UHGV virus genome: UHGV-0309262
Source: a virus
Reading direction: 5' to 3' (one strand)
DNA length: 18,505 nucleotides
Shown here piece by piece: positions 56 through 18,367 of this stretch. The notes beneath the pieces are model-generated. The model was not told the DNA's origin and ran no database searches. It saw only the letters and a program-made list of their open reading frames with translations. The translations under genes and the position numbers were made by a program. How positions within the stretch are numbered: position 1 is the first letter of the stretch; every line of letters starts with the position of its first letter.

Positions 56-140
56 GCCGAAGTGGCGAAATCGGTAGACGCAGTTGATTCAAAATCAACC
101 GTAGAAATACGTGCCGGTTCGAGTCCGGCCTTCGGCACCA
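56..140 (+). tRNA. leuX: tRNA-Leu (anticodon CAA), 85 nt, ending in CCA
   Basis: Sequence GCCGAAGTGGCGAAATCGGTAGACGCAGTTGATTCAAAATCAACCGTAGAAATACGTGCCGGTTCGAGTCCGGCCTTCGGCACCA has cloverleaf features: anticodon stem GTTGA/TCAAC with loop TTCAAAA (anticodon CAA), a long variable arm, T-arm GGTTCGAGTCC and encoded CCA. Recognised from memory as E. coli leuX. Confidence 0.9.
110..140. repeat. attL core: 31-bp tRNA 3' end, repeated at 14568..14598
   Basis: CGTGCCGGTTCGAGTCCGGCCTTCGGCACCA occurs identically at 110..140 and 14568..14598. Flanking sequence diverges immediately outside the repeat. Confidence 0.8.
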
Positions 141-1276
141 AGTCACTAAATTCCTTACAATACAGCTAGTTAGACAATAAAATCTGTCTCTTTTGCCTGT
201 AAGAAATGCTCTGTTATGTCCCTTGAAAAAGCCGCTGTGGTTGATAGTGGTAATTGGGATGTTAACTCATAGCGGCGTGTAGTTCCAAGCGTCAAACACG
301 TACTGACTCAACTTGAAAGCTATGACGTAGCCACCGTCTCTAAACAATCCCAAAAACTTTTAGTGAAGCGCATTTTAGCCCGATGCCCCCGTTCTGTCGC
401 CGTCGCGAGACGCCGCAGGGGATAAACAGGTTATGGTGGTCACGGTACTTGCAGACCATATGCAAGCTCTGCCAGCGGTTCGGCCTCGCTCCCCTTGGGT
501 ACATGGTCATCCTGATAAGCCTTACTAACTGACATAACCTTGATGAAGTCGCCAGAGGCTCCGCTTGTTGTCTTACCACCAACGGGGCTAATGGTTGGTA
601 TTGCCAGATTACTTAGCAGAGGGGCATAAAGGCACTTCGGAGATCCCGTCCCAAGCGGCTCTCAGGGACTTGTGCGCATGAAGTAATGCGGTTGTACTGG
701 GTATGTGCGCACAACCTTCTACAAGCCGCATTCTACCGTTAGTCAGTAGCTGGCTCCCCGGCTTGAAAAATTGCACGCTTATGGTTGCCCCTCCCTCAAC
801 TCTATAGCTCGCCCGCGCCCCCGTGCACATGTGCGTGCCCGCGCGTCAGGGGTCGCTGAGAAAACCCTAAGATTTTGCTCATCCGAGGCAACCGTTGCAG
901 GCGCGAAATGCTGGACGATTGCTGCTGCCGAATGTGGGTGCGGGCGATTGATTTTCACTGTGTATCTGTACATCCCTCTAAAACGATCTGTGCCGCGTTC
1001 TACGGCGTCCTGTGCTTTCGGTGTGTGATTTAACGTCTGAGTGATTTCGTGATCGTGGCGGTGCCGTGGTGATCTGCTACGTGCGCCGTGGGGCTTTGCT
1101 GCTGTGGTGCGGTGCCAGTCTGTCGCGGCTGCGCCTGTCTCATTCGGGTATACCGCATTGTGATGTGCCGCCGCTGTCGCAATCAAATTTATTTTATACC
1201 CTATTGACCACGGTTTTTAAGTGTGATCTCCTTCATGTCGGGATGTGATACTTCACTGAGATTTGGAGGGGGAATC

Positions 1277-1906
1277 ATGAATAACGTTCGTCTGTATGCC
1301 CGGGCATCCACCGCCGAGCAACACGCCGACCGTGCCGTTCCTGCGCTGGAGGATTTCGCTAATGAGCGTGGTTGGTCTATTGCTGCGCGATACATCGAGA
1401 ACGCCAGCGGTGCGCGGCTGGAGCGTCCTGAACTGATGCGCCTGCTGGGTGAGGCGGAGGCTGGCGACGTTCTACTTGTTGAAAGCATAGACAGGCTAAG
1501 CCGCCTGACACAAAAGGAATGGGCAACACTGAAACAGAGGATTCAGGATAAGGGGCTGGTGATCGTCGCCGTTGACCTGCCAACCTCGTGGCAGTTGCTG
1601 AACGAAACCGCGTCAGAGCTAACCAGCGGCATCCTCAGAGCCGTTAACGCAATGCTGATCGATATTCTCGCTACAATGGCTCGCGTGGACTACGAGACGC
1701 GACTGATGCGCCAGCGGCAGGGCATCGCACGAGCCAAAGCTGAGGGGCTTTACCGTGGGAGCCAGAAGGATGTTGCTGCCCGCGAGACTGTCCGGGAAAT
1801 GCTGGGGCAGGGTGTGAAACCTGAGCGCATCATGAAAGCTGCCGGGATAAGCCGTGCAACGTTCTATCGCATCAAGCGAGAGCTGGCCGCCAGCGTTACG
1901 GAGTGA
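1277..1906 (+). CDS. Serine recombinase (resolvase/invertase family), 209 aa
   Basis: N-terminal VRLYARASTAEQ matches the catalytic-serine motif (Y-x-R-x-S-T-x-x-Q) of small serine recombinases. C-terminal ISRATFYRIKRE resembles a helix-turn-helix. SD GGAGGGGG at 1265..1272 precedes ATG 1277. The ORF track's upstream start at 1223 is in frame but less likely. Confidence 0.75.
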   Translation: MNNVRLYARASTAEQHADRAVPALEDFANERGWSIAARYIENASGARLERPELMRLLGEAEAGDVLLVESIDRLSRLTQKEWATLKQRIQDKGLVIVAVDLPTSWQLLNETASELTSGILRAVNAMLIDILATMARVDYETRLMRQRQGIARAKAEGLYRGSQKDVAARETVREMLGQGVKPERIMKAAGISRATFYRIKRELAASVTE

Positions 1907-2894
1907 TGGCCTACAAGCGAATAAGGTGCTATGACTGGCCGTTACTGGGCTGTGGGTGATGGATTACCTACAGCTTTCGTATTAATTTCAGAGCGTTATG
2001 TTATGCACGATGTCGTAATGCTATGATTTATAATGTATTTTCGTATTACTTGCGGCTCTCGATGTGAAGAGATGGCGGGGCTTTAGCCGTGCCAGACGAT
2101 GAACATCGAGATCAGATTGTGAATGTGATTTATCACTGAAACAATTCCCGGTTGGGGGCGGGGAAGGATTCAACGCTAATTGGTTATGTCGTGGTGCTGG
2201 GTTACATGCTGTTTCTATAGGCTTTTAATGATTTCAGCGTACACGTGTACACTTAACCAATTATCTATGGAGGTTCTTATCTGGTGTCATCTCCTAGATG
2301 GCAAGTGCTGCGCCTCAGTGACGCCGCTTTGCCCTAACGCGGAGACGTTCCGCCGTCTCCACACCTCTCGACGGTGCTGCGCTTCTCGCGTCCGCTAGTC
2401 CGCTTTCATTCGCCTTCGGCTCATTCATCGGCCTGCGTCCGCTGCTGATGCTCGGCCCTCCACGCAACCGTGCTTGCCGGGCAGTCAACGCGGCGGGGAT
2501 GTGTAGTGGAACGGTACTCTGTATCGGTATTACTTCTGTATTCCATCTTATCCTGATATCGGTACGGTATTCTTCATAACATCTTCAATTCATTTCTGTA
2601 GCATTCAATCATCTTCCTTGTTCGTTTCCTTCCAGATCTTAGCCGTTGGTCATTGGTCTTACTGCCAGCTATGGCACACCGTCACGGTCTACTGCTGTAC
2701 TATCTGTTACCTGTTACTACTGCCTTCACTGGTTTCCGGTTGTCAGTCCTACGGTCTGCCATCCGTCATCCGTTCGGCGCTCGCTTGTTTCGGCTGCGCC
2801 GCGCTCGCTCTGCGTATCTAGCGATACTATATCACTATAGACACTTTCATAATTATCTATTGATATCAGTAACTTATATTTTTAATTTTAAAGG

Positions 2895-3146
2895 CTACTA
2901 ATAAGGAGATATAGAGCATTACTTTCCCGCTTTTGACCGACAAAAAATCGAGTTGTTAAGTATTGCCAGCCCAGGCCCAGTAAGGCTTAGCGAGGTGGTG
3001 ATTAAAAATTGACCTAATAAAAGTATCTACTAAGGAGAAAGAATAACTCCCGAAGTGAGACAAACTCTCCGATTTTGAAAGTGACTATTAAGGCAGATAA
3101 AGACACTGACACTGTTGCCGACATGAAAACCTCTATAAGGGCAGAG
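2895..3146. repeat. Array of 4 degenerate direct repeats (consensus about CTAnTAAGGnAG) upstream of the helicase gene; possible iterons or operator sites
   Basis: CTACTAATAAGGAG (2895..2908), TCTACTAAGGAG (3027..3038), GACTATTAAGGCAG (3083..3096) and CTCTATAAGGGCAGAG (3131..3146). None is followed by an ORF, so they are unlikely to be ribosome-binding sites. Confidence 0.4.
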
Positions 3147-3215
3147 AGTCTGCCGCACCTGTACCACCGCCCCAACCTGAGCTAATACCTACCCCTATTT
3201 TCTGGAGATTTCACC

Positions 3216-5060
3216 ATGCCAACAAACCTACGCCGCCTGCTTGCGCAGGCTGCTGACGCCGAACCGCTGAACACTGCGATTGCCGAAGCTCAGCAATTGG
3301 TTGCGGAGAAGATCGTTATACCTCATTCCAAGTTATGCCCTGTCAAACAGCGACCTGTGAAGGCTGCGTTTAACACGGAGTCCGGGCAGTATTTCTACAA
3401 TGCAGATGGTTCCGTTATGTCGTTCCGTGAATGGAAAGAGGCGAACGGAATCGGACGCAAGACACACGCCCGCCGCGCTGATGCTGGGCTACGTCAGATT
3501 ATCCAGCCCGGCGACGCAATTCATTGTCAACGCGCTGAGATTGATCAATGGCTCAACAAGAAGCCTGCCCGGTACGCCGAACCGCTGCCGCCAGATTTTC
3601 CCGGCGTTCGCGTTGACGATGCCGCTCTGAAACCACGTGAGCACGCCATCCCGGAAGCGACCACGGGGCAAAACGCCTTTCTTAAAGCCTGTCGCGAGTT
3701 TCTGATTTGTGATGAGAAGACCATCCGCCGCATCAATCGTGGCATGAGCAAGCTGGAGGCGATGCGCCACGCTGACTTTGACACCCTCGGGGATAGCCCG
3801 GAGTTTCACCAGCTATGGGGCAGTGAGCTGAAATCCACTAAGGACAATTTCAACACGAAGAACCAACACTGTGACGTTGGCGGCGCTGACCTGCCGCCGT
3901 CCATCCCGCCTCTGGTTACAGCGCCGTACAGGTTCCGTGAGCTGGAGCAATGCGACCGCCCGGCATTCGTACCGTTACCGCCGCCAGATGGTCATGACTG
4001 GCGACCCGGTCAACTCGACGTGGCCGCCGCTGTGTTTGCCCGTGACCGCGATATGTTGGCCGTACTGCCGACCGGGTACGGAAAGACGGCTGCATTCACC
4101 TATGCCCTGCATTTTGAGTCTGATGCTGGCGAAGGTATGACCGTTATTGTCGTGCCGACGAACACTATCAAGCAGCAGGTGCTAGAGCAGTTAAGGGAGG
4201 CTGGCGTTCACGCTGTGGCATTTGGCGATAAACTACCGAAGCGGCGTAATGCGCAGCAACTTGCGGGGTTGGCTGCTGGTGCTTTCCGCGTCGCAGTCGT
4301 TTCGCCTGAACATCTGGTGCCGGGTAGTCAGGTGCTTGCCGCGCTGATGGCCGCTGGTGCGGACAGATTTATCATTGACGAGGTGCACACCGTTGATGAA
4401 TGGGAGTTCCGGGACGCTTTCCCTGCAATGAAGCACACCCTGCAAAATGCCTTCCCGGATGCTCAGCGGTGCGCGTTTACTGCGACCCTGCGAAAAGGTG
4501 ATGAGTCTGGCTTGATGAAAGAGCTTGGCTGTCGTGGCGAGTTCCTCACCTACCGCGCCAGTGCTGCCCGTGAAAACATCCAGCTTATTCCTGCTCAGCA
4601 ATGCGTAACTCCGCGCCGGGCTGCCGTTGGTCTGGTCAATGCGCTGCCGGAGAATGAAAAGACATTGGTGATGGTGGACAGCATAAAGATGCTGTATGCG
4701 TATCTCAACGAACTGGGAGACCGTGCCCGGCCTTATCATTCTGACGTTGAGCGACTGAGCCGCGATCAGCGGCACGCCAACGCAGAGTGGTTCTCCAGCA
4801 CGCCCGGCGCTGTTCTGGTGGCGACCAAAGCCTTTGGCCTCGGAGCCGATATTTCTGACGTGCGTAACGTAATTGTCACTTATGTTCCGGAAGACCTGCC
4901 CGATTTGGTGCAAATGGTTGGCCGTGCCGGGCGCGATGGTCAACCTGCCCGTGCTTTCATACTCTGGTCATCGTTGGCGCTGGGGGATGCGCCTGATGAT
5001 TTGGCGGCGTTGTACCAGCCCCACAATGCTAACTGGGGTTACATCTCCCGCTTCCTCTGA
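3216..5060 (+). CDS. RecQ-like SF2 DNA helicase with an ~270 aa N-terminal domain of unknown function (614 aa); probable replication or recombination protein of the element
   Basis: Helicase motifs read from the translation: motif I LPTGYGKT, motif II IIDEVH, motif III FTAT, and motif V/VI VATKAFGLGADISDVRNVI...QMVGRAGRDG, which closely resembles the RecQ signature QExGRAGRDG. SD GGAGA 7 nt upstream of ATG 3216. Confidence 0.8.
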   Translation: MPTNLRRLLAQAADAEPLNTAIAEAQQLVAEKIVIPHSKLCPVKQRPVKAAFNTESGQYFYNADGSVMSFREWKEANGIGRKTHARRADAGLRQIIQPGDAIHCQRAEIDQWLNKKPARYAEPLPPDFPGVRVDDAALKPREHAIPEATTGQNAFLKACREFLICDEKTIRRINRGMSKLEAMRHADFDTLGDSPEFHQLWGSELKSTKDNFNTKNQHCDVGGADLPPSIPPLVTAPYRFRELEQCDRPAFVPLPPPDGHDWRPGQLDVAAAVFARDRDMLAVLPTGYGKTAAFTYALHFESDAGEGMTVIVVPTNTIKQQVLEQLREAGVHAVAFGDKLPKRRNAQQLAGLAAGAFRVAVVSPEHLVPGSQVLAALMAAGADRFIIDEVHTVDEWEFRDAFPAMKHTLQNAFPDAQRCAFTATLRKGDESGLMKELGCRGEFLTYRASAARENIQLIPAQQCVTPRRAAVGLVNALPENEKTLVMVDSIKMLYAYLNELGDRARPYHSDVERLSRDQRHANAEWFSSTPGAVLVATKAFGLGADISDVRNVIVTYVPEDLPDLVQMVGRAGRDGQPARAFILWSSLALGDAPDDLAALYQPHNANWGYISRFL

Positions 5061-5103
5061 GCTAACTGGCTCGCCTGTTTAATTTCCTCTCTGGAGAATC
5101 CAC

Positions 5104-5535
5104 ATGCCTGATGAAACCGTGCGGCAACGCGCGGGGCGTTCTGACGCCCTGATTAATGCGCAGCTCGCTTACGCCCTGAACGGGTATTCATTTGATGGGT
5201 TGGCCGAACGTCATCGCAAGACCCTTAACCGGGAGGCCATCCTTCGCGAGGTGTCCACGCCGCTGGAGCGATATTGCCTTTTGAATGATTGCGAACCGTG
5301 GGAGTGTCTGGCCGCTGTGCTGAACCGCATGAAAAGGCCGGATGGCTCACGTTGCTGGAAAGCTGTCCGCCTGTCTGAGCGGGTTTTTAATGGTCGAGTG
5401 CATCCAGTGCGCAAGACACCTGATGAAGTTTACGCCGCCATTGCCCGCCGTTTATTTCTGCCGAAGCCCGTGCATCAAGAAGTGATACAGCACATCCGGG
5501 CGCTTGGCCTGTTACCAGTTGGAGATAACCATTAA
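5104..5535 (+). CDS. Hypothetical protein (143 aa), first gene of a coupled operon
   Basis: ORF with SD GGAGAA 6 nt upstream of the ATG. Its stop overlaps the next start (TAATG). No recognisable motif. Confidence 0.55.
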   Translation: MPDETVRQRAGRSDALINAQLAYALNGYSFDGLAERHRKTLNREAILREVSTPLERYCLLNDCEPWECLAAVLNRMKRPDGSRCWKAVRLSERVFNGRVHPVRKTPDEVYAAIARRLFLPKPVHQEVIQHIRALGLLPVGDNH

Positions 5536-5744
5536 TGACCAAAACCGAGTTTGAAGCTGGGACATGGGATATGCGGTGCCTGTTGCTGGAGGCGCTGACC
5601 CGCCGCCTGAAAGAGGACTCCGCTGGAGAATCCCGCATGGCTGCTGCCGAGCTGTCATCCTGCGTGAACTTCCTCAAGCAAAATGCCGCCGATGCGCCGG
5701 ACGCATCTTTCAATAACGTGTTCCCGGAGGATGACAACGAATGA
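5535..5744 (+). CDS. Hypothetical protein (69 aa), acidic C-terminus
   Basis: Start overlaps the preceding stop (TAATG) and the stop overlaps the next start (ATGA), indicating translational coupling. Confidence 0.45.
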   Translation: MTKTEFEAGTWDMRCLLLEALTRRLKEDSAGESRMAAAELSSCVNFLKQNAADAPDASFNNVFPEDDNE

Positions 5745-5932
5745 CGCCGCACCAGTTTAGAGCGTGGTTTAACTCGCTGCCTGAGAAGTACCAGAAGCAG
5801 GCCAAAGCCATGTACGACAACGCCCGGCGCGGCGGTGGTATCCATACCGCATCCAGCCTCGCTTTGATTAAAGACCTTGTAGAAGATTCGATTAACTTTG
5901 ATGGAGAGTTCCAGTATGACAACCACCAGTAA
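5741..5932 (+). CDS. Hypothetical protein (63 aa)
   Basis: ATGA overlap with the upstream gene; in-operon position and consistent coding composition. Confidence 0.45.
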   Translation: MTPHQFRAWFNSLPEKYQKQAKAMYDNARRGGGIHTASSLALIKDLVEDSINFDGEFQYDNHQ

Positions 5933-6494
5933 CGCAACCCTGACCCTGCGCGATATTCAGCTTATCAATAAACTGAGTATTGTTGACCACCTGAACAACG
6001 ATGAAATCTCTTCTCGCACTGGTTTCAGCCCGAGCGACATCGACCGTGTAATCCGTGGCGTCTATGTCGATGACTTGGCCGAACAGTGGAAAGACGATGC
6101 TGATATTACTCTGGCTGAATACAACGCCATCCGCAGCCGCTATAAGCCCGGCAAGCTGCACCGTGATACGGAATTTATGATTGCCCGCGATACGCTGATT
6201 CGCCCTGAAACCGTGCTGGCTATCGCTCATTCCAGATTCCAGAACGCCCACACTCACCCTGCGCCGAAAGCCGTTAAAGTGAAGCCGGAGAAAGCGAAAG
6301 CCATGCGCAAGCTGGTGCCTTCTGATTTGGATGAAATCCACAAGTTAGAGCGCTTTGGCTGGCCTGTCGCTGACATCGCCCAAAAGCTGGACGTTCCGCC
6401 AGAGGTGATCGCTTTCGTTAACCGCTGCTTAAAGAGCCGCTGGCCGTATGGTGACATTCTGGAAAATGTTAATGCGAAATGGGGAGCCGAGTGA
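5916..6494 (+). CDS. Hypothetical protein (~192 aa)
   Basis: ATG at 5916 is preceded by GGAGAG at 5902..5907. The ORF track's earlier TTG start at 5898 lacks an SD. Stop overlaps the next start (TGATG). Confidence 0.5.
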   Translation: MTTTSNATLTLRDIQLINKLSIVDHLNNDEISSRTGFSPSDIDRVIRGVYVDDLAEQWKDDADITLAEYNAIRSRYKPGKLHRDTEFMIARDTLIRPETVLAIAHSRFQNAHTHPAPKAVKVKPEKAKAMRKLVPSDLDEIHKLERFGWPVADIAQKLDVPPEVIAFVNRCLKSRWPYGDILENVNAKWGAE

Positions 6495-6724
6495 TGGAAG
6501 ATAACGACATCATTCACCCTGCAATTGACCCGACTCAATACGTCAACCTTGACGAGATGCGGGAAGGCTACGCCCCTGTTAAGCCGCAGGGGTGGGACAT
6601 CCTGACGCAGAATCTCCGAAGTGAGGCCGCACCCGAACAGCCAGTCACCGCCCGTGGACGCCGCCAGCGTCCGCGTGGCTCCGCTGGCGAGCGCCGTTGG
6701 CTACGCCGTCACGGGCTTATTTAA
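6494..6724 (+). CDS. Hypothetical protein (76 aa), Arg-rich C-terminus
   Basis: ATG 6494 overlaps the upstream stop; GGGGAG SD at 6481..6486. Confidence 0.45.
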   Translation: MEDNDIIHPAIDPTQYVNLDEMREGYAPVKPQGWDILTQNLRSEAAPEQPVTARGRRQRPRGSAGERRWLRRHGLI

Positions 6725-6738
6725 CTGAGGATTATTTC

Positions 6739-6978
6739 ATGAGCACCATCATTTTAATGGAGCCACGCCGCGCGGCTGATTGCGGGCAACAACTGAAATT
6801 CATTGCTGACGCCTTGAATCTTCGTCAAATCGACTTGGCTCGTGTGTACCAGATCGACAGACAAGATCTCGGCAAAGCGTACCACGGACAGAAGATGATT
6901 CCTGCCCGATGCGTACATGCGCACATGCTTTTACTTGAACTGGCGCACCGCCGAGTTACATCACAAGAGGTTGCATAA
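6739..6978 (+). CDS. Hypothetical small protein (79 aa)
   Basis: ATG 6739 is preceded by GAGG at 6727..6730. The track ORF starting at 6697 overlaps the previous gene and is less likely. Confidence 0.4.
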   Translation: MSTIILMEPRRAADCGQQLKFIADALNLRQIDLARVYQIDRQDLGKAYHGQKMIPARCVHAHMLLLELAHRRVTSQEVA

Positions 6979-6980
6979 TT

Positions 6981-7676
6981 ATGGCTGACAATCAAAACCC
7001 TTATCTCGCTGCTGGCGCTGATGCTGCATCGCAGCAATCGCCATACATGGCTGCACCTGTTGGAGCTGACAATGGGGCATCCCGCTTTAGCTCTGCGCCT
7101 GCTGATGCTGATTTCCTCCGTACCCAACCCGTTAACGGTAATGATGGCGGCCAATGGAATAATAGCAATATTGCTAATCAGCAAGACCAGAACGCGGACA
7201 GCGCCGGGGCGCAGGTGGGCGATACTATTCCCCTGATGGATGGAACAGCTATTGAGTACACCGCCGAGCTGCAAGGATTGATGGGGCAGTTTCACCAGTC
7301 TATAGAAAGCCAGCTCGGGCACGGAACAGTTGACGCTATGTTGCAGTACGCGGGCACGCTTGACGCCGGGACGCAATCCACCCTTGAACGTATGGTTATG
7401 TCTGGCGACCCTGCGCAGATGCAGCGGGCTGTTCAGTACCTGCAAGAGAGGATGGCCGCAGGCACTGCGACTGGTTATGTCCCGTCGCAGGGGAACACAT
7501 ATGGTCAGCCCGCCGCGCAACCTGTCGGAATGTCACACGCTGAATTCATCGCGGCGTACGATGCGCTGAATCAATGGGCTGCACAGACTGGCCGGGGTGC
7601 TGGCACGCGAGAATACGACCAGCAGTATCATGCGCTGGTTGCTCAACGCAGCGCCGGGAAGCGTGCCGGGCGCTAA
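6981..7676 (+). CDS. Hypothetical protein with a low-complexity Ala/Gln/Gly/Asn-rich N-terminal half (231 aa)
   Basis: Long ORF with no internal stops, in-operon position. The composition suggests a disordered region; no enzymatic motif recognised. Confidence 0.5.
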   Translation: MADNQNPYLAAGADAASQQSPYMAAPVGADNGASRFSSAPADADFLRTQPVNGNDGGQWNNSNIANQQDQNADSAGAQVGDTIPLMDGTAIEYTAELQGLMGQFHQSIESQLGHGTVDAMLQYAGTLDAGTQSTLERMVMSGDPAQMQRAVQYLQERMAAGTATGYVPSQGNTYGQPAAQPVGMSHAEFIAAYDALNQWAAQTGRGAGTREYDQQYHALVAQRSAGKRAGR

Positions 7677-7690
7677 CTGGAGAATTCCAT

Positions 7691-7954
7691 ATGTACGATG
7701 AGAATAGAATCCGAGTCCTGACCGAGGTAGAGAAACAATCTCACTCGGTCGATAGCATTCTTTCCATTCTGCTTGATAAATACCCCAGCACCAGCCCCGA
7801 CCATCTGACGCGTGTCGCTGAATGCCTCGTTACTTTTGGCTGGGGTGTTGCTGAATACGATGCGTACCGCGCCGGGATGCTTGGCGAAGAGAAGCGCCAG
7901 ACGATGGTCGCTTGGTTTACTGAGCGGAATTCCGCGCAACGCTGGGCTGCCTGA
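7691..7954 (+). CDS. Hypothetical protein (87 aa)
   Basis: ATG 7691 with GGAG SD 8 nt upstream, just after the upstream stop at 7674..7676. The ORF track's 7574 start lies inside the preceding gene. Confidence 0.45.
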   Translation: MYDENRIRVLTEVEKQSHSVDSILSILLDKYPSTSPDHLTRVAECLVTFGWGVAEYDAYRAGMLGEEKRQTMVAWFTERNSAQRWAA

Positions 7955-8224
7955 TTCCGATGCCAGCGCCTGACGGTGCATTGTGGGCTGCAAGTCCGAC
8001 TGGACACCTGACCCTGCGAATTAACTACTTACTGTCCACTAATCGCTGAGAGCCGCGCCAATTCTGGCCTAGCAAAGCCAGTTTCGGGTACTCGGAGACT
8101 TTTCTATCAATCTGCTTTAACCCTGATTTTCCATCTCTCTGAATCCTGCCACGGCGGGAGGATTACGCACGCCTGCACCATGACGATGGCGCGGGCTTCA
8201 TCAACCTACGTAGGAGTTTTGTTT

Positions 8225-9220
8225 ATGGCTGATACTTCGTACAGTCCCGATCTGTTTCGCCCACATTATGGCGGGGTGGAATCCGACAATGATATTCACA
8301 TCGAGGCTTATGACCGGGATGTCCAGACCCGTTTAGAGTCCAAATCCGTATTTCTGGCCGAGGGGCTGTCTACATACAGGCCGCTGAAAGGCAGCAACCA
8401 ATACCGCATTGATCGCCTGAGTGGTGATCTTGAGGTGAAGGGCAGAACCGCAGGGCAATCGCTGGAGCCTACCGCCGTTAAGTCGGACAAGCTGATCATC
8501 TCTGTGGATACTCTGAGCTATATCCGCATCCCGATTGATTATCAAGATGACTGGACTGCACCCACCTTTCGCGCCGAGCTGAGCCGCAACATGGGGACAG
8601 CCCATGCGAAGTTTTACGACGAAGCGCACACCATCCAGTTAATCAAAGCGACTGACTTTGTACCGCCGCCGACACTGCAACCAACGTTTAACCCGCTTAC
8701 GGGCAATGTTGTCTCGCTCGACCTGACAGCGGGGAGCGAAGAGGACGCCGCAAAAGAGCTGGTTCACGCTATCAAAGCTGCTGTTGATCGGTTCCTGACT
8801 GAGAAAGATATTCCGGTGGTGGAGTTGTGTCTTCTCATCGACCCGGCTTGGTTCAGCATCCTGATGGAACACAAGAAGCTGATGAACGTCCGTTATAGCC
8901 GGGATAGTGGCAACGATTACGCGTGGCGGCGCATCGGTTACGTGGCCGGGGTGCGAGTCATTGAGCTGAACAGTTACCCGCAGGAAGCCATTACCGGGCA
9001 TGAGCTGGGCGCTGATTATGACGTTACCGCAGAGGAAGCGCTGACGAGGGCGACGCTGTTTAAACCCTCCTCGGTACTGTTGACGGTCGAAGCACAGAGC
9101 GTCATCAATCGCCAGTGGGATGATGAACGCGAAATGACGGTGGTGATGGACTCATATCGCCTGTTCAACGTTGGGCTGCGTCGTCCTGATTGCGTTATCA
9201 ATTTCCGACAATCTGCGTAA
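8225..9220 (+). CDS. Hypothetical protein (331 aa); possibly structural, but this is a weak guess
   Basis: ATG 8225 preceded by AGGAG at 8210..8214, following a 270-bp intergenic gap. Size and position after a low-complexity protein loosely resemble a scaffold/capsid arrangement, but no motif confirms it. Confidence 0.5.
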   Translation: MADTSYSPDLFRPHYGGVESDNDIHIEAYDRDVQTRLESKSVFLAEGLSTYRPLKGSNQYRIDRLSGDLEVKGRTAGQSLEPTAVKSDKLIISVDTLSYIRIPIDYQDDWTAPTFRAELSRNMGTAHAKFYDEAHTIQLIKATDFVPPPTLQPTFNPLTGNVVSLDLTAGSEEDAAKELVHAIKAAVDRFLTEKDIPVVELCLLIDPAWFSILMEHKKLMNVRYSRDSGNDYAWRRIGYVAGVRVIELNSYPQEAITGHELGADYDVTAEEALTRATLFKPSSVLLTVEAQSVINRQWDDEREMTVVMDSYRLFNVGLRRPDCVINFRQSA

Positions 9221-9236
9221 CTGGAGGGGCTGGGTC

Positions 9237-9746
9237 ATGGTTAATGATACTTACGCCCCTGAGCTGTTGCGATCCCTTTTCCTGTACGACCCGGTGACAG
9301 GTCGCCTGCACCATAAAGCTAACCGACGCCGGGTTAAGGCTGGCTCCTGTGCTGACTCCACCCGTCGAGCTGATGGCTATCGTCAAGTTGCCCTGCGACT
9401 GGATGGCAAGCAGTACCAGCTAAAAGCCCACCGCGTGGCGTGGATTCTTGCGCATGGCGCTATTCCTGATGGTCTGCAAGTTGACCACATCAACGGTATC
9501 CGTGACGACAACCGCCTATGCAATCTGCGCTTGGTTACGCAGCGGGAAAACGACCAGAACCGACGCAGGGCAAAGGGTTGTAGCTGGAATAAGGGCTGTA
9601 GCAAATGGGAGGCTTACATTCGCGTTAATGGTGTACGCCATCACCTTGGCTTATTCACTAGCGAAGCGGCGGCGCGTGCTGCTTACCTGAAAGCAAAAGC
9701 CAGATACCATCCCTCGACCCCAGTCGATTTGTTAAATGCTGCTTAA
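9237..9746 (+). CDS. HNH endonuclease with AP2-like DNA-binding domain (169 aa)
   Basis: AHRVAWILAHGAIPDGLQVDHINGIRDDNRLCNLRLVTQRENDQNR matches the phage-type HNH_3 signature (H...DH.NG...DNR..NL......N). WEAYIRVNGVRHHLGLFTSEAAARAAY matches an AP2 domain. SD GGAGGGG 6 nt upstream. Confidence 0.7.
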   Translation: MVNDTYAPELLRSLFLYDPVTGRLHHKANRRRVKAGSCADSTRRADGYRQVALRLDGKQYQLKAHRVAWILAHGAIPDGLQVDHINGIRDDNRLCNLRLVTQRENDQNRRRAKGCSWNKGCSKWEAYIRVNGVRHHLGLFTSEAAARAAYLKAKARYHPSTPVDLLNAA

Positions 9747-9764
9747 ACTTTGGAGACGTAGTTT

Positions 9765-10199
9765 ATGGGGACTAAAAAGCAGGGTAGAGCAATCCGAGTG
9801 CTGCCAGATGATGACCCACGTCGCCAGCGGTACGCCGAACTGTTGGCGCAGGCTGGCCGGATGACTGTCCCCCGGTTGCATCCGGGAGACGCTAACAGCG
9901 TAATGAGCCAGCTCGCGACGATGCTTGGCGCACCAGTCCCGATAGTCGGCACTATGACGGAGCACGCCGCCGCATGGCGGACCTGCCTGCTGGAGCAAGG
10001 ACTTGGCGATCTGCTGGCTGGCTTGAGTAAGCAGGTACTGACCGTCTTCTTTCTGCTTTGCTGGAGAGACAGCGCCTTGCGGCAGGTTGGCAAGGAGCGG
10101 GAACGGCTTACGGCGGCCAGCGAAGGCTTGACCATTGAACAGTATCGGGCAATGCGCTCGGCTTACAGAGAGAATAAAGAAGATGATGACCACGATTAA
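9765..10199 (+). CDS. Hypothetical protein (144 aa)
   Basis: ORF with GGAGACG SD upstream of ATG 9765; in-operon position. Confidence 0.45.
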   Translation: MGTKKQGRAIRVLPDDDPRRQRYAELLAQAGRMTVPRLHPGDANSVMSQLATMLGAPVPIVGTMTEHAAAWRTCLLEQGLGDLLAGLSKQVLTVFFLLCWRDSALRQVGKERERLTAASEGLTIEQYRAMRSAYRENKEDDDHD

Positions 10200-10482
10200 A
10201 TTAAGGTGGCGGTACATCGATCCGCCGCCAATGGCTGGCGCACTCGCTGACCTGAAAGTGTGGGTAATGGATACCGGAGAGCCTGAGCTGGAAGCTGAAT
10301 TTCGTAAGCTGCTGGGGTTAATGCGCCGCAACGGTATCAGTGACGAACGCGTTAATGCGATGGCTGATGAGCTTTATGTTCTGGTACGGCAACGGCAGCG
10401 CGAAGAATACGAAGCCTGCAAGCGGGCTGCATCTGACAATGGAGACTTTGAATCATGGTTACACGGACAGACCAGCTACTAA
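10183..10482 (+). CDS. Hypothetical protein (~99 aa)
   Basis: ATG 10183 overlaps the end of the upstream gene. The 5' part of the track ORF (from 10135) overlaps that gene and is rejected. Confidence 0.4.
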   Translation: MMTTIKLRWRYIDPPPMAGALADLKVWVMDTGEPELEAEFRKLLGLMRRNGISDERVNAMADELYVLVRQRQREEYEACKRAASDNGDFESWLHGQTSY

Positions 10483-10883
10483 GAAAAGCTATGCGGGGCT
10501 ATCTGGAACACCTCGGCAACATGCCGTTGGCGGAACGGATTACAAACACTGCTGCATTCGAAGATGTGTATCGCTTCCTGTTGAATGGTTCCGGGCGTCT
10601 GGAGCTGCGTCGTGCTGATGTGGCCGCTGTCCGTTTCTTCTTGTGGAATTATCAATACCGCCGCTGTGCGGTGACAGGTAAGCCGCTGCGCCTTACGTCT
10701 GCCGTATTAGATCACTGCCACCGAACCGGGCGCGTGCGTGCTGTGGTGCATCGCTCTGCTAACGCTGCTGAGGGTGGCTACCATGCTGGGCGTTTGTGTG
10801 GGCTGTCGCCTAGCAGCATGAACGCGATGCTGGCGAGCTACCGCCAACAAAACCAAGGGCTGGGCGTTGTTTATCCGGGGTGA
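10455..10883 (+). CDS. Endonuclease VII-like (Holliday-junction/branched-DNA nuclease family) protein (142 aa)
   Basis: C-terminal CAVTGKPL...LDHCHRTGRVRAVVHRSANAAEG matches the Endonuclease_7 pattern (C..C...DH.H.TG.VR.....N...G). GGAGA SD upstream of ATG 10455. Confidence 0.6.
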   Translation: MVTRTDQLLRKAMRGYLEHLGNMPLAERITNTAAFEDVYRFLLNGSGRLELRRADVAAVRFFLWNYQYRRCAVTGKPLRLTSAVLDHCHRTGRVRAVVHRSANAAEGGYHAGRLCGLSPSSMNAMLASYRQQNQGLGVVYPG

Positions 10884-10938: not shown

Positions 10939-12015
10939 TCAGTGGGTTACGCAGTTTTCCATAAACGCATTAAGGAATTGATCTGTAATTCCTTGTGGTT
11001 TGCGTCGTTCACAAAGAGAATACAATTCTTCGACTGCTGAGTACGGGAAGAATTTTGTGTCCAGCTCTCGGAATTGCGGCATATTCGCAAACTCAATGAC
11101 TTTAGCACGATATTCATCGGGGGCTACGATTGTCCATCTGATATCTTGAAGCCGTGGGGCATAGTCACAAAAATTCTTCATCCGGGTTAACCCGCTTTTA
11201 ATCCCAGTGCTGTGCTCAATTTCCATCACGGCGGGCATTAATTTTCCATTTCTAAACCAAATGCAATCTATTAGTTTTGCACCGTCAATGGCCTCGCTGT
11301 ACGAGCTTAATACCTTTTCATTTGAGAGGCTATCAATTACCCCATCCATTTGAGCAATGACTTTTCCGTTATATTTAAGTCCGCGATCATTAGCTGCCAC
11401 CCATGTTCTGTAGCCTAAGTGGTGGCCGATTTTTACTAATGCAATCTGGATTTGTGCATGTCTTCTTGATTCTTCAATCGACATGCCCTCAACTGGGCGG
11501 ATCGTTTCCAGATCAACGCTTTGATATACAACCTCTGTTTTCATCTCTGATATTACAATATTAGCTTTGTATTCAGAGAGCTTACCGTTTTCGTGTGGCG
11601 AATTGGGTAAGTACACAAGATGCTTGTGGCCTTTCTTTACCGTCTGTTTAGTGTTAATAACTTCTAAACGGTCGAGTTTACACCAATAAAATTGCGGTGT
11701 GTGTGCAAGTAAACTCTCAATAACGGAACGGGAGTTATAGCTTGCACCAAGCACTCTATCTAAATTGATAGGTGCATCCTCTTGAATTGCATTAGCCAAA
11801 CGCCAAAGCATCTGGCTAGAGATGCTGTCTATTTTTGCATCTTTAAGCGTCTCGCCTTTGGTCGGATTAAAACGCTTAAAGCGTATCGGGCCTTGTGGTG
11901 ACTTAATCGAGTCGACGACAATCTTCCCAGCATTACTTTCATTCACATAATCAAACTGCCTGTTTTTGGGCAGGTTGGCTATCGCATTCACAAGATTCAT
12001 TGCTGTCAAATTCAT
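10939..12015 (-). CDS. Putative type II restriction endonuclease (358 aa), cognate to the adjacent methyltransferase
   Basis: Immediately downstream of, and overlapping by 65 nt, a C5-cytosine methyltransferase gene on the same strand. Similar low GC. AGGGA SD upstream of ATG 12015. The function is inferred from position only; no catalytic motif recognised. Confidence 0.5.
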   Translation of the reverse strand: MNLTAMNLVNAIANLPKNRQFDYVNESNAGKIVVDSIKSPQGPIRFKRFNPTKGETLKDAKIDSISSQMLWRLANAIQEDAPINLDRVLGASYNSRSVIESLLAHTPQFYWCKLDRLEVINTKQTVKKGHKHLVYLPNSPHENGKLSEYKANIVISEMKTEVVYQSVDLETIRPVEGMSIEESRRHAQIQIALVKIGHHLGYRTWVAANDRGLKYNGKVIAQMDGVIDSLSNEKVLSSYSEAIDGAKLIDCIWFRNGKLMPAVMEIEHSTGIKSGLTRMKNFCDYAPRLQDIRWTIVAPDEYRAKVIEFANMPQFRELDTKFFPYSAVEELYSLCERRKPQGITDQFLNAFMENCVTH

Positions 12016-13090
12016 CTTTTATCCCTAAATGCTCTAATATAGATTTTGCTATTCCGAAGGCTGCAAGGTAAGGAACACCATTACCAACAGTTTTGAACAT
12101 ATTTGAAAGAGTCATATAAGATGGCAATTCAAACTCTTTCGGCAAAGACTGAATGGCAAGCGCTTCTGCAACTGTTATTCTGCGTGGCTTATATGGATGT
12201 AAATGAACCTCGTTATTACCATAAGCAGCAGTCGGCGAATATCTCCAGCGGTGGAGGCGCTTGTAAGATTTTTTACTATCGTCACCTTCTGCAACAGCCT
12301 TGAAGCGTACTAATCCAGCTCTGGCCGTAAATACATGCTTCGCGTTCACATGTTCAGAAACATTATTTTTCTTAAACCAGTAATCAACAGTTAATTCTTG
12401 TGGGAGTGACTCTGGCATTGCAAGTGTAGAGTCCTCGGAAAATTCATTTGTTGTTGGCCAACTGTAACTAAAGGCATTACGATCCGGGTATAATCTGCCA
12501 CTCCAATTAAATGACTTGGCTAGTCTCTTACTTTGGAAACCCAATAGAATAATGCGCTCTCGGTCTTGCGGAGCACCGTATTCAATCGAATTAATCAACC
12601 TTTCATGAAGAGTGTAACCCACATCCATCAACTGCTCTTTGAGATGCTCAAAAAACTCGCGATGCTTGAGTGTGCGATATAACCCCTTGACGTTCTCGAA
12701 CAAGAAGAAGTCAGGTTTCATCTCTACAATTATATCAATGTAGCTTTGGGACAGCTTACCATTCTCCCCATCGCGCCCTTTGTTTTTGCCCGCAACGGAG
12801 AAGTCGGGGCAAGGTGGGCCACCAATGAAGCCAATCAGTCTTTTTTCTTTCTTGAGTGTTTTAATAGCGTCTTTCAACTGCTTGTGATCAACTTCCTCTA
12901 TGCTCTTTTCGGCATAGCCAAAACGAGGGATAGGCTTGTTCATTACCGCACGCGAGTGCTTGTAAGCATCCATAAACGGCGGGTGAAATTCATTCACAAA
13001 AACCACTTCGTAGCCTGAGTTTTCAAAGCCAAGGTCTAAAAAGCCTGAGCCGGAAAAGAAAGAGAAGATGGCGGGTTTAAGTGTGGACAT
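11951..13090 (-). CDS. DNA (cytosine-5)-methyltransferase (379 aa)
   Basis: C5-MTase motifs in the expected order: motif I FSGSGF (F-x-G-x-G), motif IV GGPPCP (the catalytic Pro-Cys), motif VI ENV (FLFENVKGL), motif VIII QDRER, motif X GNGVP near the C-terminus. Confidence 0.8.
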   Translation of the reverse strand: MSTLKPAIFSFFSGSGFLDLGFENSGYEVVFVNEFHPPFMDAYKHSRAVMNKPIPRFGYAEKSIEEVDHKQLKDAIKTLKKEKRLIGFIGGPPCPDFSVAGKNKGRDGENGKLSQSYIDIIVEMKPDFFLFENVKGLYRTLKHREFFEHLKEQLMDVGYTLHERLINSIEYGAPQDRERIILLGFQSKRLAKSFNWSGRLYPDRNAFSYSWPTTNEFSEDSTLAMPESLPQELTVDYWFKKNNVSEHVNAKHVFTARAGLVRFKAVAEGDDSKKSYKRLHRWRYSPTAAYGNNEVHLHPYKPRRITVAEALAIQSLPKEFELPSYMTLSNMFKTVGNGVPYLAAFGIAKSILEHLGIKDEFDSNESCECDSQPAQKQAV

Positions 13091-13225: not shown

Positions 13226-14434
13226 TTAAAGGGCTATTTGATGGTTCACAAACTCCACGTAGCGTGATAGTTCGGCTGGGGCTGCTGCGTTTTTCGAATA
13301 TGTTTTGAAGCTCTCCGTGTTACCTCGCTCATGGCCGACGAGCAGGGCAATGCGATCCTCTGGCACTTGAGCACGGTCGAGCTGTTGCACAAACGCATGG
13401 CGGAGTGAATGAAACACTTTTCTCTCTGCGGCAGGCTCGCCAAGAGCTTTACGCTTTGCTCGCGTGAATTGTTGCGTATGCCACGTTGAGCGCTTCCCAT
13501 CGGCCCGGTCTGTAATAGATGCGTGATAGAACAGAAAACCGCTATGTGTGGTTTTGAGCAATGATTTCATGAGGGGGATTAACTTGCTGTGTACAGGGAC
13601 AATTCGCGCTGCGCTCTTAGTTTTCCCCTCGGTGATCTCAAAGCACAATATCCCCTCGATAGTTTTAATGCTGCTTTCACGTAGCGTACATATCTCATTG
13701 ATCCGCATACCGCTGTATGCACCAATAGCCGTTACCGCCTTCATCTCATCATCAAGCAAAGCATAGACCTTTGCCAGCTCACCCGGTGCGAAGACTTCAT
13801 AGCTGACCTTGCTGCTTTTTGCTTCGAGCGCATGACCGCGCCAAGGATTGTCTTGTGGCGCATCGTGATAGCGATTGCGTGCCAGATCCCATATCTGCGC
13901 CAGTGCGCTTATATAGTTTTGAATAGTTTGGGGCGCTCGCTCAGTTTTGAGCTTATCTAACCAGCCTGTAACTATGGTTCGGTTAATATCCCGCAACTGA
14001 ACATCTTTCTTTTTCAGGTGGGTTAACAGCACCTCTACGGCTTTGTTGGTCTTAGATAGCGTTGTTAGCTTTCTCTTCTCGCTGTATTGGAGAAGATACA
14101 GATCGCGCATTTTAAGTAGGGAGGGGCAAGCCTGAACCGATGCACCAAATGATGCGGGGGCTTCCTTGGCATATACACTGACACGGCGTAGCTCATCAAT
14201 GATTTGATCGACGGATGAGCCGCCTTGCGGTTTTAGCAGATTCCGTAAGCGAGTCCATTCCAGAGCAATAGCATCGCGAAACAAACGCGCTTGCCGTATG
14301 TCGCGTGTCCCTGTGCTTTTCATAAAGTAGCGCTTCCCTTGGAACAGGTGACGCATATAGCTGGGGATAGCTATCCGCACGAGGTAATTACCGCAGGGAT
14401 CTAAAACTAGATAACGATCTCTCTTGAAACTCAT
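13226..14434 (-). CDS. Tyrosine recombinase / phage-type integrase of the inserted element (402 aa)
   Basis: C-terminal catalytic signature: R in YSGMRINEI, HSLRHAF (H-x-x-R box), LLVGH, and the nucleophile Y in TESFKTYSKN. Lies next to the right direct repeat. Confidence 0.8.
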   Translation of the reverse strand: MSFKRDRYLVLDPCGNYLVRIAIPSYMRHLFQGKRYFMKSTGTRDIRQARLFRDAIALEWTRLRNLLKPQGGSSVDQIIDELRRVSVYAKEAPASFGASVQACPSLLKMRDLYLLQYSEKRKLTTLSKTNKAVEVLLTHLKKKDVQLRDINRTIVTGWLDKLKTERAPQTIQNYISALAQIWDLARNRYHDAPQDNPWRGHALEAKSSKVSYEVFAPGELAKVYALLDDEMKAVTAIGAYSGMRINEICTLRESSIKTIEGILCFEITEGKTKSAARIVPVHSKLIPLMKSLLKTTHSGFLFYHASITDRADGKRSTWHTQQFTRAKRKALGEPAAERKVFHSLRHAFVQQLDRAQVPEDRIALLVGHERGNTESFKTYSKNAAAPAELSRYVEFVNHQIAL

Positions 14435-14567: not shown

Positions 14568-14598
14568 CGTGCCGGTTCGAGTCCGGCCTTCGGCACCA
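14568..14598. repeat. attR core: displaced original 3' end of leuX
   Basis: Identical 31-bp copy of tRNA positions 110..140, located ~165 bp upstream of the P4-like integrase where an intact leuX would normally sit. Confidence 0.8.
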
Positions 14599-14710: not shown

Positions 14711-14764
14711 TTGGGGGCATAATTGGGGGCATCTTAACTTCGATTAGAAATGTGCCCCCAAATG
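14711..14764. promoter_or_regulatory. Direct and inverted repeats of a TTGGGGGC motif upstream of and overlapping the intB start; putative integrase operator or arm-type site
   Basis: TTGGGGGCAT (14711..14720) and TTGGGGGCAT (14723..14732) are direct repeats. Their reverse complement GCCCCCAA sits at 14753..14760, overlapping the start codon. Confidence 0.3.
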
Positions 14765-16027
14765 AAGCTCAACGCCAGACAGGTCGAGACCGCAAAGCCA
14801 AAAGACAAAACCTATAAAATGGCCGATGGCGGCGGTTTGTATCTCGAGGTTTCGGCCAAGGGTTCTAAATACTGGCGCATGAAATACAGACGCCCCTCAG
14901 ACAAAAAAGAGGATCGCCTCGCTTTTGGTGTTTGGCCTACTGTGACGCTTGCTCAGGCAAGAGCAAAGCGCGACGAAGCTAAAAAGCTGTTAGTGCAGGG
15001 CATTGACCCAAAAGCCGAACTGAAAGAAGCTCAGGCCGAGAATTCGGGGGCATATACTTTCGAAACCATTGGCCGTGAATGGCATGCCAGTAACAAGCGC
15101 TGGAGTGAAGACCATCGATCACGCGTTCTTCGCTATCTTGAGCTTTATATCTTCCCTCATATCGGTTCGTCCGACATTCGCCAGCTCAAAACTAGCCACC
15201 TGTTAGCCCCGATTAAAAAAGTTGATGCCAGTGGAAAGCATGACGTCGCTCAGCGCTTGCAACAGCGCGTTACGGCCATTATGCGTTATGCCGTACAGAA
15301 CGATTACATCGACTCAAATCCAGCCAGTGATATGGCCGGTGCGCTATCGACAACCAAAGCGCGGCACTATCCTGCTTTGCCCTCTAGCCGCTTCCCAGAG
15401 TTTCTTGCTCGTCTTGCTGCATATCGTGGCCGTGTAATGACACGGATCGCGGTCGAGCTTTCCTTACTCACTTTTGTACGTTCCAGTGAGTTACGTTTCG
15501 CGCGTTGGGATGAATTCGACTTCGATAAATCTCTTTGGCGTATACCGGCAAAACGAGAAGAAATTAAAGGCGTGCGTTACTCGTATCGTGGCATGAAAAT
15601 GAAAGAGGAGCATATTGTTCCTCTCAGTCGGCAGGCGATGGTTTTATTAGAGCAGCTCAAGCAAATTAGTGGTGATAAAGAGCTGCTGTTCCCGGGAGAT
15701 CATGACGCAACTAAGGTTATGAGTGAAAACACGGTAAACAGTGCATTGCGTGCAATGGGATATGACACGAAAACTGAGGTCTGTGGGCATGGGTTCAGAA
15801 CGATGGCGCGTGGTGCTATGGGTGAGTCAGGGTTGTGGAGTGATGACGCGATAGAGCGACAGCTGAGCCATTCAGAACGTAATAACGTGCGTGCAGCTTA
15901 TATTCATACTTCTGAGCATTTGGATGAGCGACGTTTAATGATTCAGTGGTGGGCTGATTATCTTGATGAGTTAAATAATAATTACATTACTCCATTTGAT
16001 TTCGCTAAAATACAAAAAAATTATTAA
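14762..16027 (+). CDS. intB: P4-family tyrosine integrase (421 aa)
   Basis: N-terminus MKLNARQVETAKPKDKTYKMADGGGLYLEV is the hallmark P4-like integrase arm-binding signature (AKPK..Y...DGGGLYL). Typical position just downstream of the leuX 3' end. The in-frame ATG at 14750 is an alternative start. Confidence 0.85.
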   Translation: MKLNARQVETAKPKDKTYKMADGGGLYLEVSAKGSKYWRMKYRRPSDKKEDRLAFGVWPTVTLAQARAKRDEAKKLLVQGIDPKAELKEAQAENSGAYTFETIGREWHASNKRWSEDHRSRVLRYLELYIFPHIGSSDIRQLKTSHLLAPIKKVDASGKHDVAQRLQQRVTAIMRYAVQNDYIDSNPASDMAGALSTTKARHYPALPSSRFPEFLARLAAYRGRVMTRIAVELSLLTFVRSSELRFARWDEFDFDKSLWRIPAKREEIKGVRYSYRGMKMKEEHIVPLSRQAMVLLEQLKQISGDKELLFPGDHDATKVMSENTVNSALRAMGYDTKTEVCGHGFRTMARGAMGESGLWSDDAIERQLSHSERNNVRAAYIHTSEHLDERRLMIQWWADYLDELNNNYITPFDFAKIQKNY

Positions 16028-16038
16028 TATTTACATGG

Positions 16039-16062
16039 AAGGGCTGAAAGAACAGCCCTTCT
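16039..16062. terminator. Bidirectional rho-independent-type terminator between intB and the convergent AT-rich locus
   Basis: Perfect 9-bp stem GAAGGGCTG / CAGCCCTTC with loop AAAGAA, flanked by T-rich sequence on both strands. Confidence 0.5.
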
Positions 16063-16070
16063 AATATATT

Positions 16071-16327
16071 TAATTATTTTTCAGTAATCCTTTATCTTCT
16101 AATTCTGTATAGATAGCTAGCGGTAATTTTAAGGAATCATAATCATTATTCCTTAACCATTCCTTCGCCGCACTTACCGAAGGGTTTGAGTTTGGAATGA
16201 TATTCTCTAGATACGATGCTGTAATTCTAGATAACCCTAGTTCGATGAATACTTGCCCTGCGATAGATGAAACCCCTAGTTCAAGTGATAATGGAAAATC
16301 ATAGATTTCTTCAGATTTTTTTCTTGG
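16071..16327 (-). other. Start-less 84-codon open frame overlapping the helicase 3' end; possible frameshifted C-terminal extension or gene remnant
   Basis: My translation of the minus strand gives ...KSEEIYDFPLSLELGVSSIAGQVFIELGLSRITASYLENIIPNSNPSVSAAKEWLRNNDYDSLKLPLAIYTELEDKGLLKNN* with no ATG, GTG or TTG. It is in the -1 frame relative to the helicase and begins at an A7 tract (plus-strand T7 at 16306..16312). Confidence 0.3.
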
Positions 16328-18345: not shown

Positions 18346-18367
18346 TTGTTTCAAATAATCATCACCG

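Follow-up and report, generated by a model that had tools for sequence, protein, structure and literature searches.

We analyzed an 18,505-nt stretch of the virus genome UHGV-0309262, referred to here as the window, with emphasis on a helicase gene and the four short repeats that lie upstream of it. The original prediction for this locus was an autonomous replication module in which the repeats act as iterons and the helicase acts as their initiator. Our results favor a different explanation. We consider it probable, though well short of certain, that the locus comprises the regulatory region and the first gene of a satellite that parasitizes virulent phages of the Bonnellvirus type, and that the repeats form an array of promoters addressed to several helpers.

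The four repeat copies all lie on the plus strand, 75 to 327 nt ahead of the helicase ATG, with cores at positions 2898, 3027, 3085, and 3133 (Table 1). Their number is far above chance, in line with the earlier claim, but the consensus written for them did not stand. CTAnTAAGGnAG fits exactly only the copy at 3085, and allowing one mismatch adds only an unrelated minus-strand site at 10699. Since this consensus was not significant as written, we replaced it with a description based on register. The real repeat unit spans about 18 nt and contains a relaxed core, CTA-N0-2-TAAGG. This core occurs four times between positions 2851 and 3216; dinucleotide shuffles contain it 0.10 times on average, and none of 2000 shuffles reached four. 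No other copy was found on either strand of the whole 18.5-kb window. The copies are irregularly spaced (129, 58, and 48 nt). They vary among themselves in a single 3-nt block at the center, and every copy holds its own version of the block across the close relatives we examined. All four copies are retained in related islands whose helicase gene is only ~78% identical, and the non-coding DNA from ~2370 to 3216 is nearly invariant between these islands.

The phages that carry the best relatives of the capsid gene in the window (described below) are virulent podophages of the T7 supergroup. They have genomes of 41 to 42.5 kb and encode their own RNA polymerase (RNAP). In phage Kc261, the sequence ATGAAAG-CTA-CTATA(G/T)TG occurs on the plus strand right after the RNAP gene and ahead of the DNA-metabolism genes, and it appears in reverse at the left end of the genome. 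Other Bonnellvirus phages share this layout with the motif TGAAAG-NNN-CT(A/G)TAGTG, and the left-end reverse site was found in 10 phages. We examined four complete phage genomes (LF82-23, altidsur, Kc261, and J8-65), and within any one of them the class of the central triplet (NNN) is uniform over all sites; for megetsur, HHU8, BHUENT7, usur, ROV85, RZ4, and forsur, the triplet was read at the left-end site only. The triplet is TGT in LF82-23, altidsur, megetsur, HHU8, and BHUENT7, CTA in Kc261 and usur, TGA in ROV85, RZ4, and forsur, and TAA in J8-65 (TAT at one site). A site in the internal-virion-protein gene, ATGAGGG-NNN-CTACTAAGGAAGG (L003 33170, L007 39012), switches from CTA to TGT in step with the rest, at a cost of two amino acids. 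When the RNAPs of the CTA, TGT, and TAA classes are compared, their differences cluster immediately ahead of the AAAIAPNFVHAMD motif, at the location of the specificity loop in T7 RNAP. In its GenBank record, the related phage LIMEzero has a feature named "putative phage specific promoter" whose position and register match the Bonnellvirus motif. From these comparisons, we infer that T(G/A)AA(A/G)G-NNN-CT(A/G)nnnn-G is the likely polymerase promoter of Bonnellvirus phages. Scans of IMG/VR for the phage motifs returned one Bonnellvirus contig only. We also observed a phage gene start that reads ATGAAAG-NNN-CTACTATGGG (L003 20046, L007 25888, L008 31501). Its NNN follows the promoter class of the phage, indicating that a promoter-like site overlaps the start codon.

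All four repeats in the window fit the register proposed for the helper promoters without gaps: T(G/A)AA(A/G)G-NNN-CTAnnnn-G(G/A). We scored the window with a position weight matrix derived exclusively from 12 phage sites, masking the triplet, and ranked its ~37,000 positions. This phage-only matrix places three of the four repeats within the top five matches in the window. The counterpart of site 1 in another island (L002) has TAAAAG-CTA, and the five best matrix matches in island L038 all lie upstream of the helicase. Across eight further species, matches of at least 11 bits occur 16 times in 3,600 plus-strand positions at most 450 nt upstream of the helicase, compared with 10 in 122,088 positions elsewhere, an enrichment of ~54-fold. 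Unlike triplets appear again in more distant arrays (TGT, CTA, TCA, TAA, and CAT). The helper-derived leftward site of one island (see below) has CAT, suggesting a helper class that has not been sampled.

The link between satellite repeats and helper sites consists of a common upstream half and a common register. The sequence CTACTAAGG, found at site 2, is also the internal phage site. We considered whether the repeat motif itself recurs across helper genomes and rejected this idea, as it occurs only once per phage, at this internal site. The orientation and position of the repeats suit driving the downstream genes, and no host promoter was found; a search for sigma-70-like promoters between 1850 and 3300 returned none, compared with 2.2 expected. 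These comparisons suggest that helper-RNAP promoters directed into the operon are a better description of the repeats than iterons. Iterons are near-identical, regularly spaced sites bound by one initiator, and the spacing and copy-specific triplets of the repeats depart from that pattern. The leader RNA shows no excess structure (z +1.34), so we dropped a riboswitch or non-coding RNA interpretation. An Rfam search of the whole window at E ≤ 1 returned only the tRNA. No supported small open reading frames (ORFs) were found between 2400 and 3216, and the TAAGGAG cores lack start codons after them. On the operon side of the element, AT content peaks in the repeat region, where GC is 0.44–0.49 compared with ~0.56 in the genes that follow.

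A second connection to the helpers lies immediately to the left of the array. A blastn search against the phage collection matched the 175-bp segment at 2704–2878 to 15 phages. In LF82-23, altidsur, and Kc261, the counterpart of this segment sits between the terminal repeat, with its array of short repeats, and the early sigma-70 promoters. The putative promoter in the segment points leftward, which in the phage is toward the terminal repeat, and the segment is possibly a copied packaging or end-processing signal.

The surrounding element has the features of a phage satellite, and the satellite-like character raised in the original prediction is supported. The 3' end of the tRNA-Leu gene is repeated downstream, bounding an attachment site (att)-flanked island of 14,458 bp, about one-third the size of a helper genome. 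The island encodes an integrase and an incomplete virion module, and it has specific sequence ties to its helper phages, including in cis the 175-bp segment that is up to 95% identical to their left-end DNA. Its major capsid protein is 55–57% identical to those of the Bonnellvirus phages Lidtsur, glasur, altidsur, J8-65, LF82-23, and Kc261, which are phiKMV-like members of the T7 supergroup. Every gene from 3216 to 10883 points rightward, forming an operon that runs from the helicase to endonuclease VII. Two products of this operon resemble the helper small terminase (TerS) and scaffolding protein; the 69-residue TerS-like protein matches PF11123 weakly (E 0.0098), below the cut-off. We recognized no portal, protease, head-tail connector, tail, or large terminase gene in the island, and several small ORFs were left without a match. 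Other than the helicase, which is the only DNA-unwinding enzyme encoded, no replication protein was recognizable. The TerS-like and scaffold-like proteins, the satellite's own capsid, and the one-third genome size together suggest that packaging may be redirected into small capsids.

Table 1. Features of the window, with positions, strands, and the evidence for each
Feature	Position	Strand	Evidence or remark
tRNA-Leu(CAA); its 3' 30 nt (111–140) form the left att repeat	56..140	+	ARAGORN; Rfam tRNA, 59.4 bits; direct repeat
Serine recombinase (resolvase), start codon uncertain	1223..1906	+	Pfam Resolvase, E 6.1e-25, and HTH_7; relatives named "recombinase family protein"
Conserved non-coding block, GC-rich	2376..2535	.	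98% identical in L011, 92% in L038; near-invariant in alignments A1 and A2
Helper-derived segment, candidate packaging or origin mimic	2704..2878	.	blastn; 84–95% identical to Bonnellvirus left-end non-coding DNA
Putative leftward helper-type promoter, TGAAAG-TGT-CTATAGT-GA	2832..2849	-	21.9 bits, rank 1; identical in LF82-23 and altidsur
Promoter-like site 1, TAAAGG-CTA-CTAATAA-GG	2889..2906	+	9.4 bits, rank 12; Kc261/usur class
Promoter-like site 2, TAAAAG-TAT-CTACTAA-GG	3018..3035	+	14.7 bits, rank 3; J8-65 uses TAA/TAT
Promoter-like site 3, TGAAAG-TGA-CTATTAA-GG	3076..3093	+	20.2 bits, rank 2; ROV85/RZ4/forsur class
Promoter-like site 4, TGAAAA-CCT-CTATAAG-GG	3124..3141	+	13.7 bits, rank 5; no phage of the CCT class in the collections
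Helicase N-terminal domain (residues 1–260), orphan	3216..3995	+	Pfam, phmmer, AlphaFold, Foldseek
Minimal RecQ-type SF2 helicase core (residues 261–586), 28-residue tail, and stop codon	3996..5060	+	Pfam, PDB, NCBIfam
69-residue protein like the N-terminal half of helper small terminase	5535..5744	+	48% over 40 residues to J8-65 TerS, pairwise E 1e-6
231-residue protein, possible short scaffold	6981..7676	+	C-terminus 28% over 96 residues to the C-terminus of the 406-residue helper scaffolding protein, pairwise E 0.003
Major capsid protein, T7/phiKMV type	8225..9220	+	phrog_267, E 1.9e-70
HNH endonuclease	9237..9746	+	Pfam HNH_3, E 1.2e-19; phrog_99
Endonuclease VII-like protein, at the end of the rightward operon	10455..10883	+	Pfam Endonuclease_7; phrog_423; similar to J8-65 endonuclease VII
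Cargo: type II restriction enzyme and C5 methyltransferase	10939..13090	-	PADLOC REase_II, MTase_II; position varies between islands
Tyrosine integrase of the island	13226..14434	-	Pfam Phage_integrase, E 1.1e-16
Right att repeat, copy of the tRNA-Leu 3' end	14569..14598	+	Direct repeat

The helicase is encoded by a plus-strand ORF (3216 to 5060) that starts with ATG, has a GGAG sequence 9 nt before the start codon, and specifies 614 residues. RefSeq annotates its relatives in related Escherichia coli islands as "DEAD/DEAH box helicase". Pfam identified DEAD (residues 264–426, E 5.8e-19), Helicase_C (residues 478–575, E 1.7e-15), and ResIII domains and nothing else. The closest solved structure is the E. 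coli RecQ core (1oyw; E 8.5e-24, residues 261–585), followed by WRN, RECQ1, and BLM. The two RecA-like lobes align with RecQ over residues 261–586, and we could read motif 0 (WRPGQ, similar to FRPGQ), DEVH, and GRAGRDG (residues 569–575). The protein scores below the NCBIfam family cut-offs, with 135.8 bits against recQ_fam (TIGR00614; cut-off 219.8) and 137.7 bits against TIGR01389 (cut-off 640.2). The Pfam search found no match to RecQ_Zn_bind (PF16124), RQC (PF09382), or HRDC (PF00570), and the protein ends 28 residues after the core. Genuine RecQ proteins among the database matches do carry these domains. The satellite helicase thus differs from RecQ, WRN, and BLM in lacking the Zn-binding, winged-helix (RQC), and HRDC domains, in falling below the family cut-offs, and in its fusion to an orphan 260-residue domain. 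"Minimal RecQ-type core" is the correct description of this helicase, and the original prediction was accurate both in this respect and in noting the absence of RQC and HRDC regions.

Automated tools assign a defense-related name to the same protein. PADLOC matched the core to DpdF (161 bits) and PsyrT (116.5 bits), and its DpdF model PDLC02858 gave 1045 bits over residues 112–614. The latter score arises because the model was evidently built from the satellite helicase family itself. We rejected membership in a Dpd (7-deazaguanine modification and restriction) system, as neither the window nor the related islands contain dpdA, dpdB, dpdC, or other dpd genes. The helicase resembles DpdF in having a RecQ-like superfamily 2 (SF2) core but has no dpd neighbors, and the DpdF name does not carry over because the PADLOC model evidently includes the satellite family. 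The labels "DpdF" (PADLOC) and "ATP-dependent DNA helicase RecQ" (some sources) are likely to mislead automated annotation.

The fusion of the helicase core to an N-terminal domain without a known function was also confirmed. The domain spans ~260 residues (1–260) and is conserved inside the satellite family (alignment A3). It has no Pfam match even at E ≤ 10, and its single NCBIfam match (topA, 0.037) was judged to be noise. A homology search with this domain alone, suggested alongside the original prediction as a check, found nothing outside the satellite family; phmmer against 1.84 billion representative proteins gave 14 matches, all of which belong to the domain's own family or are fragments of it. 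tblastn searches of phage and plasmid collections with the helicase returned weak matches (~25–31% identity) to the core and none to the N-terminal domain. The sole strong "plasmid" match is really a 4.9-Mb chromosome. Two AlphaFold runs on the domain gave a mean predicted local distance difference test score (pLDDT) of 57.6 and 56.3, and a Foldseek search of the PDB with the predicted structure found no significant match (best E 0.97).

We propose a model for how the promoter array could couple the satellite to its helpers. The single-subunit RNAP of the helper, made after infection, would fire the site that fits its specificity and switch on the satellite operon, including the helicase, TerS-like, scaffold-like, and capsid genes. 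The NNN block would sit where T7-type polymerases read promoter identity. Because each site has a different triplet, the array would act as a set of keys, one for each helper promoter class, and this key set would let one satellite answer several helper lineages. The helper-derived segment and its leftward promoter probably supply packaging or end-processing signals. T7 origins are phage promoters beside AT-rich DNA. Since the array region is likewise AT-rich, its transcripts may, more speculatively, also serve as primers with which the helper replisome copies the satellite. The RecQ-like helicase could assist this replication or help to process what it yields, for instance by unwinding R-loops or D-loops on an excised circle, and the orphan N-terminal domain could give the helicase its target or partner specificity. 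The combination of a promoter array tuned to helper classes, through which the satellite would sense which helper is infecting the cell, a transcription-primed origin, and a RecQ-core helicase that serves as the replication factor of the satellite is a tentative proposal that falls just short of probable.

We weighed this model against three alternatives. The repeats lie directly upstream of the only helicase gene in a satellite with no other recognizable replication protein, an arrangement that invites the iteron interpretation, in which the N-terminal domain of the helicase binds the repeats to form an autonomous origin and initiator module. SaPI/PICI Rep, P4 alpha, and PLE RepA each pair an initiator with nearby repeats. 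To our knowledge, however, initiators that bind an origin do not include any SF2 RecQ-type helicase, and we detected no DNA-binding or initiator fold in the N-terminal domain. The low GC content of the region and the closely spaced units of a distant lineage (described below) would suit an origin. On the other hand, a copy-specific triplet that is kept in close relatives is odd for sites bound by a single protein, the spacing is irregular, and the repeats align without gaps to helper promoters and are selected by a matrix derived from phages alone. On this evidence, the iteron and initiator origin was not borne out, and we regard it as unlikely.

The other two alternatives accept that the repeats are helper promoters. 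In one, the helicase is an effector of interference or defense against the helper rather than a replication protein and might unwind or stall helper replication or recombination intermediates, by analogy with PsyrT/RqlH and DpdF. Satellites commonly interfere with their helpers, and defense cargo is present in this island. The PADLOC matches to DpdF and PsyrT point in the same direction, but the PDLC02858 hit is a mere label that evidently derives from the same helicase family, and there is neither another dpd gene nor a PsyrA-like partner nearby. In all of the islands examined, the lineage with 46% identity among them, the helicase gene is part of the syntenic core and lies outside the variable cargo slots. 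We judge this alternative unlikely. In the other, the array is mainly a decoy that soaks up helper RNAP and lowers helper late expression, with operon driving as a secondary function. Tandem promoter-like sites are numerous enough to raise the idea, reaching 10–12 in the distant lineage compared with ~4–5 in each helper genome examined. A single-copy array would be a weak sink unless the satellite replicates first, however, and with unlike triplets only one or two sites would bind a given polymerase well. All of the sites are also co-oriented with the operon. We consider a decoy function highly unlikely.

Several observations weigh against the promoter array model. The Bonnellvirus promoter motif is a prediction of ours, and its sole backing is an annotation, itself marked "putative", from a related genus. 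In the initiation region, the satellite sites read CTAnTAA|GG and the main phage class reads CTATAGT|GA; the satellite form matches only the single internal phage site. The score of site 1 is low (9.4 bits), and the CCT triplet of site 4 has no known phage counterpart. TAT occurs at only one J8-65 site, and J8-65 has CTG in place of CTA. The TGT class appears in this island only at the leftward site. Recent recombination, rather than selection, could explain the near-identity of the non-coding region between islands. A distant lineage (L010 and L039) carries 10–12 ACTAAGG units at a spacing of ~33–40 nt, with one 91-nt gap, which is more iteron-like, and we found no matching helper for this lineage in the phage collection; we regard this as the principal caveat. 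The part that the model gives to the helicase is hypothetical. The distant arrays (L010 8436–8841, L039 4072–4412) lie upstream of an operon consisting of an HNH gene, an ORF, and the helicase gene, with a Rha-family gene ahead of the array; the helicase of this lineage is 46–48% identical.

We compared the promoter-like array and its element to known systems. T7 origins and promoters (phi1.1A/phi1.1B and phi2.5) are sites of ~18–23 nt with an AT-rich upstream part, a specificity block, CTA- or TATA-type melting, and a G start, and the sites in the array have the same features. As in T7, tandem promoters would lie beside AT-rich DNA and be co-oriented with the downstream genes, and T7 promoters double as origins. 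Unlike those of T7, the sites described here lie on a chromosomal island and carry four different specificity triplets.

The element shares several features with satellites that combine an initiator with iterons, namely SaPI/PICI (Pri-Rep with ori), P4 (alpha with ori/crr), and PLE (RepA with iterons). It is an integrated, apparently helper-dependent island in the ~10–18-kb range with a large helicase-type gene beside a repeat array. It also appears to carry its own size-control or packaging genes, and it is about one-third the size of the helper genome, as P4 is relative to P2. In known satellites, induction comes from helper proteins that lift repression or from transactivator cross-talk. 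By contrast, the helper here would be a virulent T7-supergroup podophage, and induction would use the RNAP of the helper in place of derepression or transactivator cross-talk. The helicase has an SF2 RecQ core instead of an SF3/SF4 or RepA_N protein, and the repeats are promoter-like. Capsid-forming PICIs (cfPICIs) likewise encode their own HK97-fold major capsid and packaging-related proteins. Our element differs from them in having no recognized portal, protease, connector, or large terminase, in its T7/phiKMV-type capsid, and in its helper family and regulation. The literature we searched, which covered few subscription journals, contained no description of Bonnellvirus or T7-like satellites or of satellites driven by phage-RNAP promoters. 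The element would represent a phage satellite with a new type of helper, a new induction logic, and an unusual helicase.

If the model is correct, a satellite that carries helper polymerase promoters in several specificities would be induced in a different and particularly direct way. Well-defined satellites would then also be known for virulent coliphages of the T7 type, a group with uses in phage therapy and biotechnology. The array triplets could record the promoter classes of helpers, including classes that have not yet been isolated (CAT, CCT, and TCA). Therapy with Bonnellvirus-like phages may turn out differently where these islands are present, and the islands could be a source of natural orthogonal promoter and polymerase pairs.

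The satellite family was found only in chromosomes, and among 5,426 complete E. coli genomes, 58 carry it. Its members occur in Escherichia, Citrobacter, Cronobacter, Enterobacter, Kosakonia, Kluyvera, and Trabulsiella, and these genera overlap with those on record as hosts for Bonnellvirus-like phages (Escherichia, Enterobacter, Kosakonia, Cronobacter, and Pantoea). Many public assemblies hold the element as a stand-alone contig of 14–15 kb. One Logan contig (L013, 14,774 bp) was considered as a candidate circular form but is no proof of one; its 25-nt terminal overlap equals the att core and fits an excised circle or an assembly break alike.

Other parts of the non-coding DNA to the left of the array are also conserved. 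The block at 2376–2535 is kept in L011 although the flanking non-coding DNA has diverged, and it is followed by a pyrimidine-rich stretch that contains GTATCGGTA twice. A conserved long hairpin with the stem TCTCGATGT/ACATCGAGA lies at 2040–2150, downstream of the resolvase gene (minimum free energy -39.4 kcal/mol, z -3.89, equaled by no shuffle). A TATAAT sequence near 2030 lies just upstream of this hairpin, which may represent a small RNA or a site used by a recombinase.

The slot between the endonuclease VII and integrase genes is one of two hotspots for defense genes. It holds a type II restriction-modification (RM) system here and TIR, YafO toxin, or GNAT genes elsewhere (L002 22828–24170, L011 18045–18657, and L038 12423–13186). 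A second variable slot lies beside the tRNA gene and contains an Eco29kI-type RM system in L013 (576–2431). Beyond the right att repeat, the window contains a second island in tandem (14750–18381), where the GC content drops to ~0.33. This island encodes a P4-type integrase (14750–16027) and a HamB-like helicase of the Hachiman defense system (16276–18381; PADLOC, 1042 bits).

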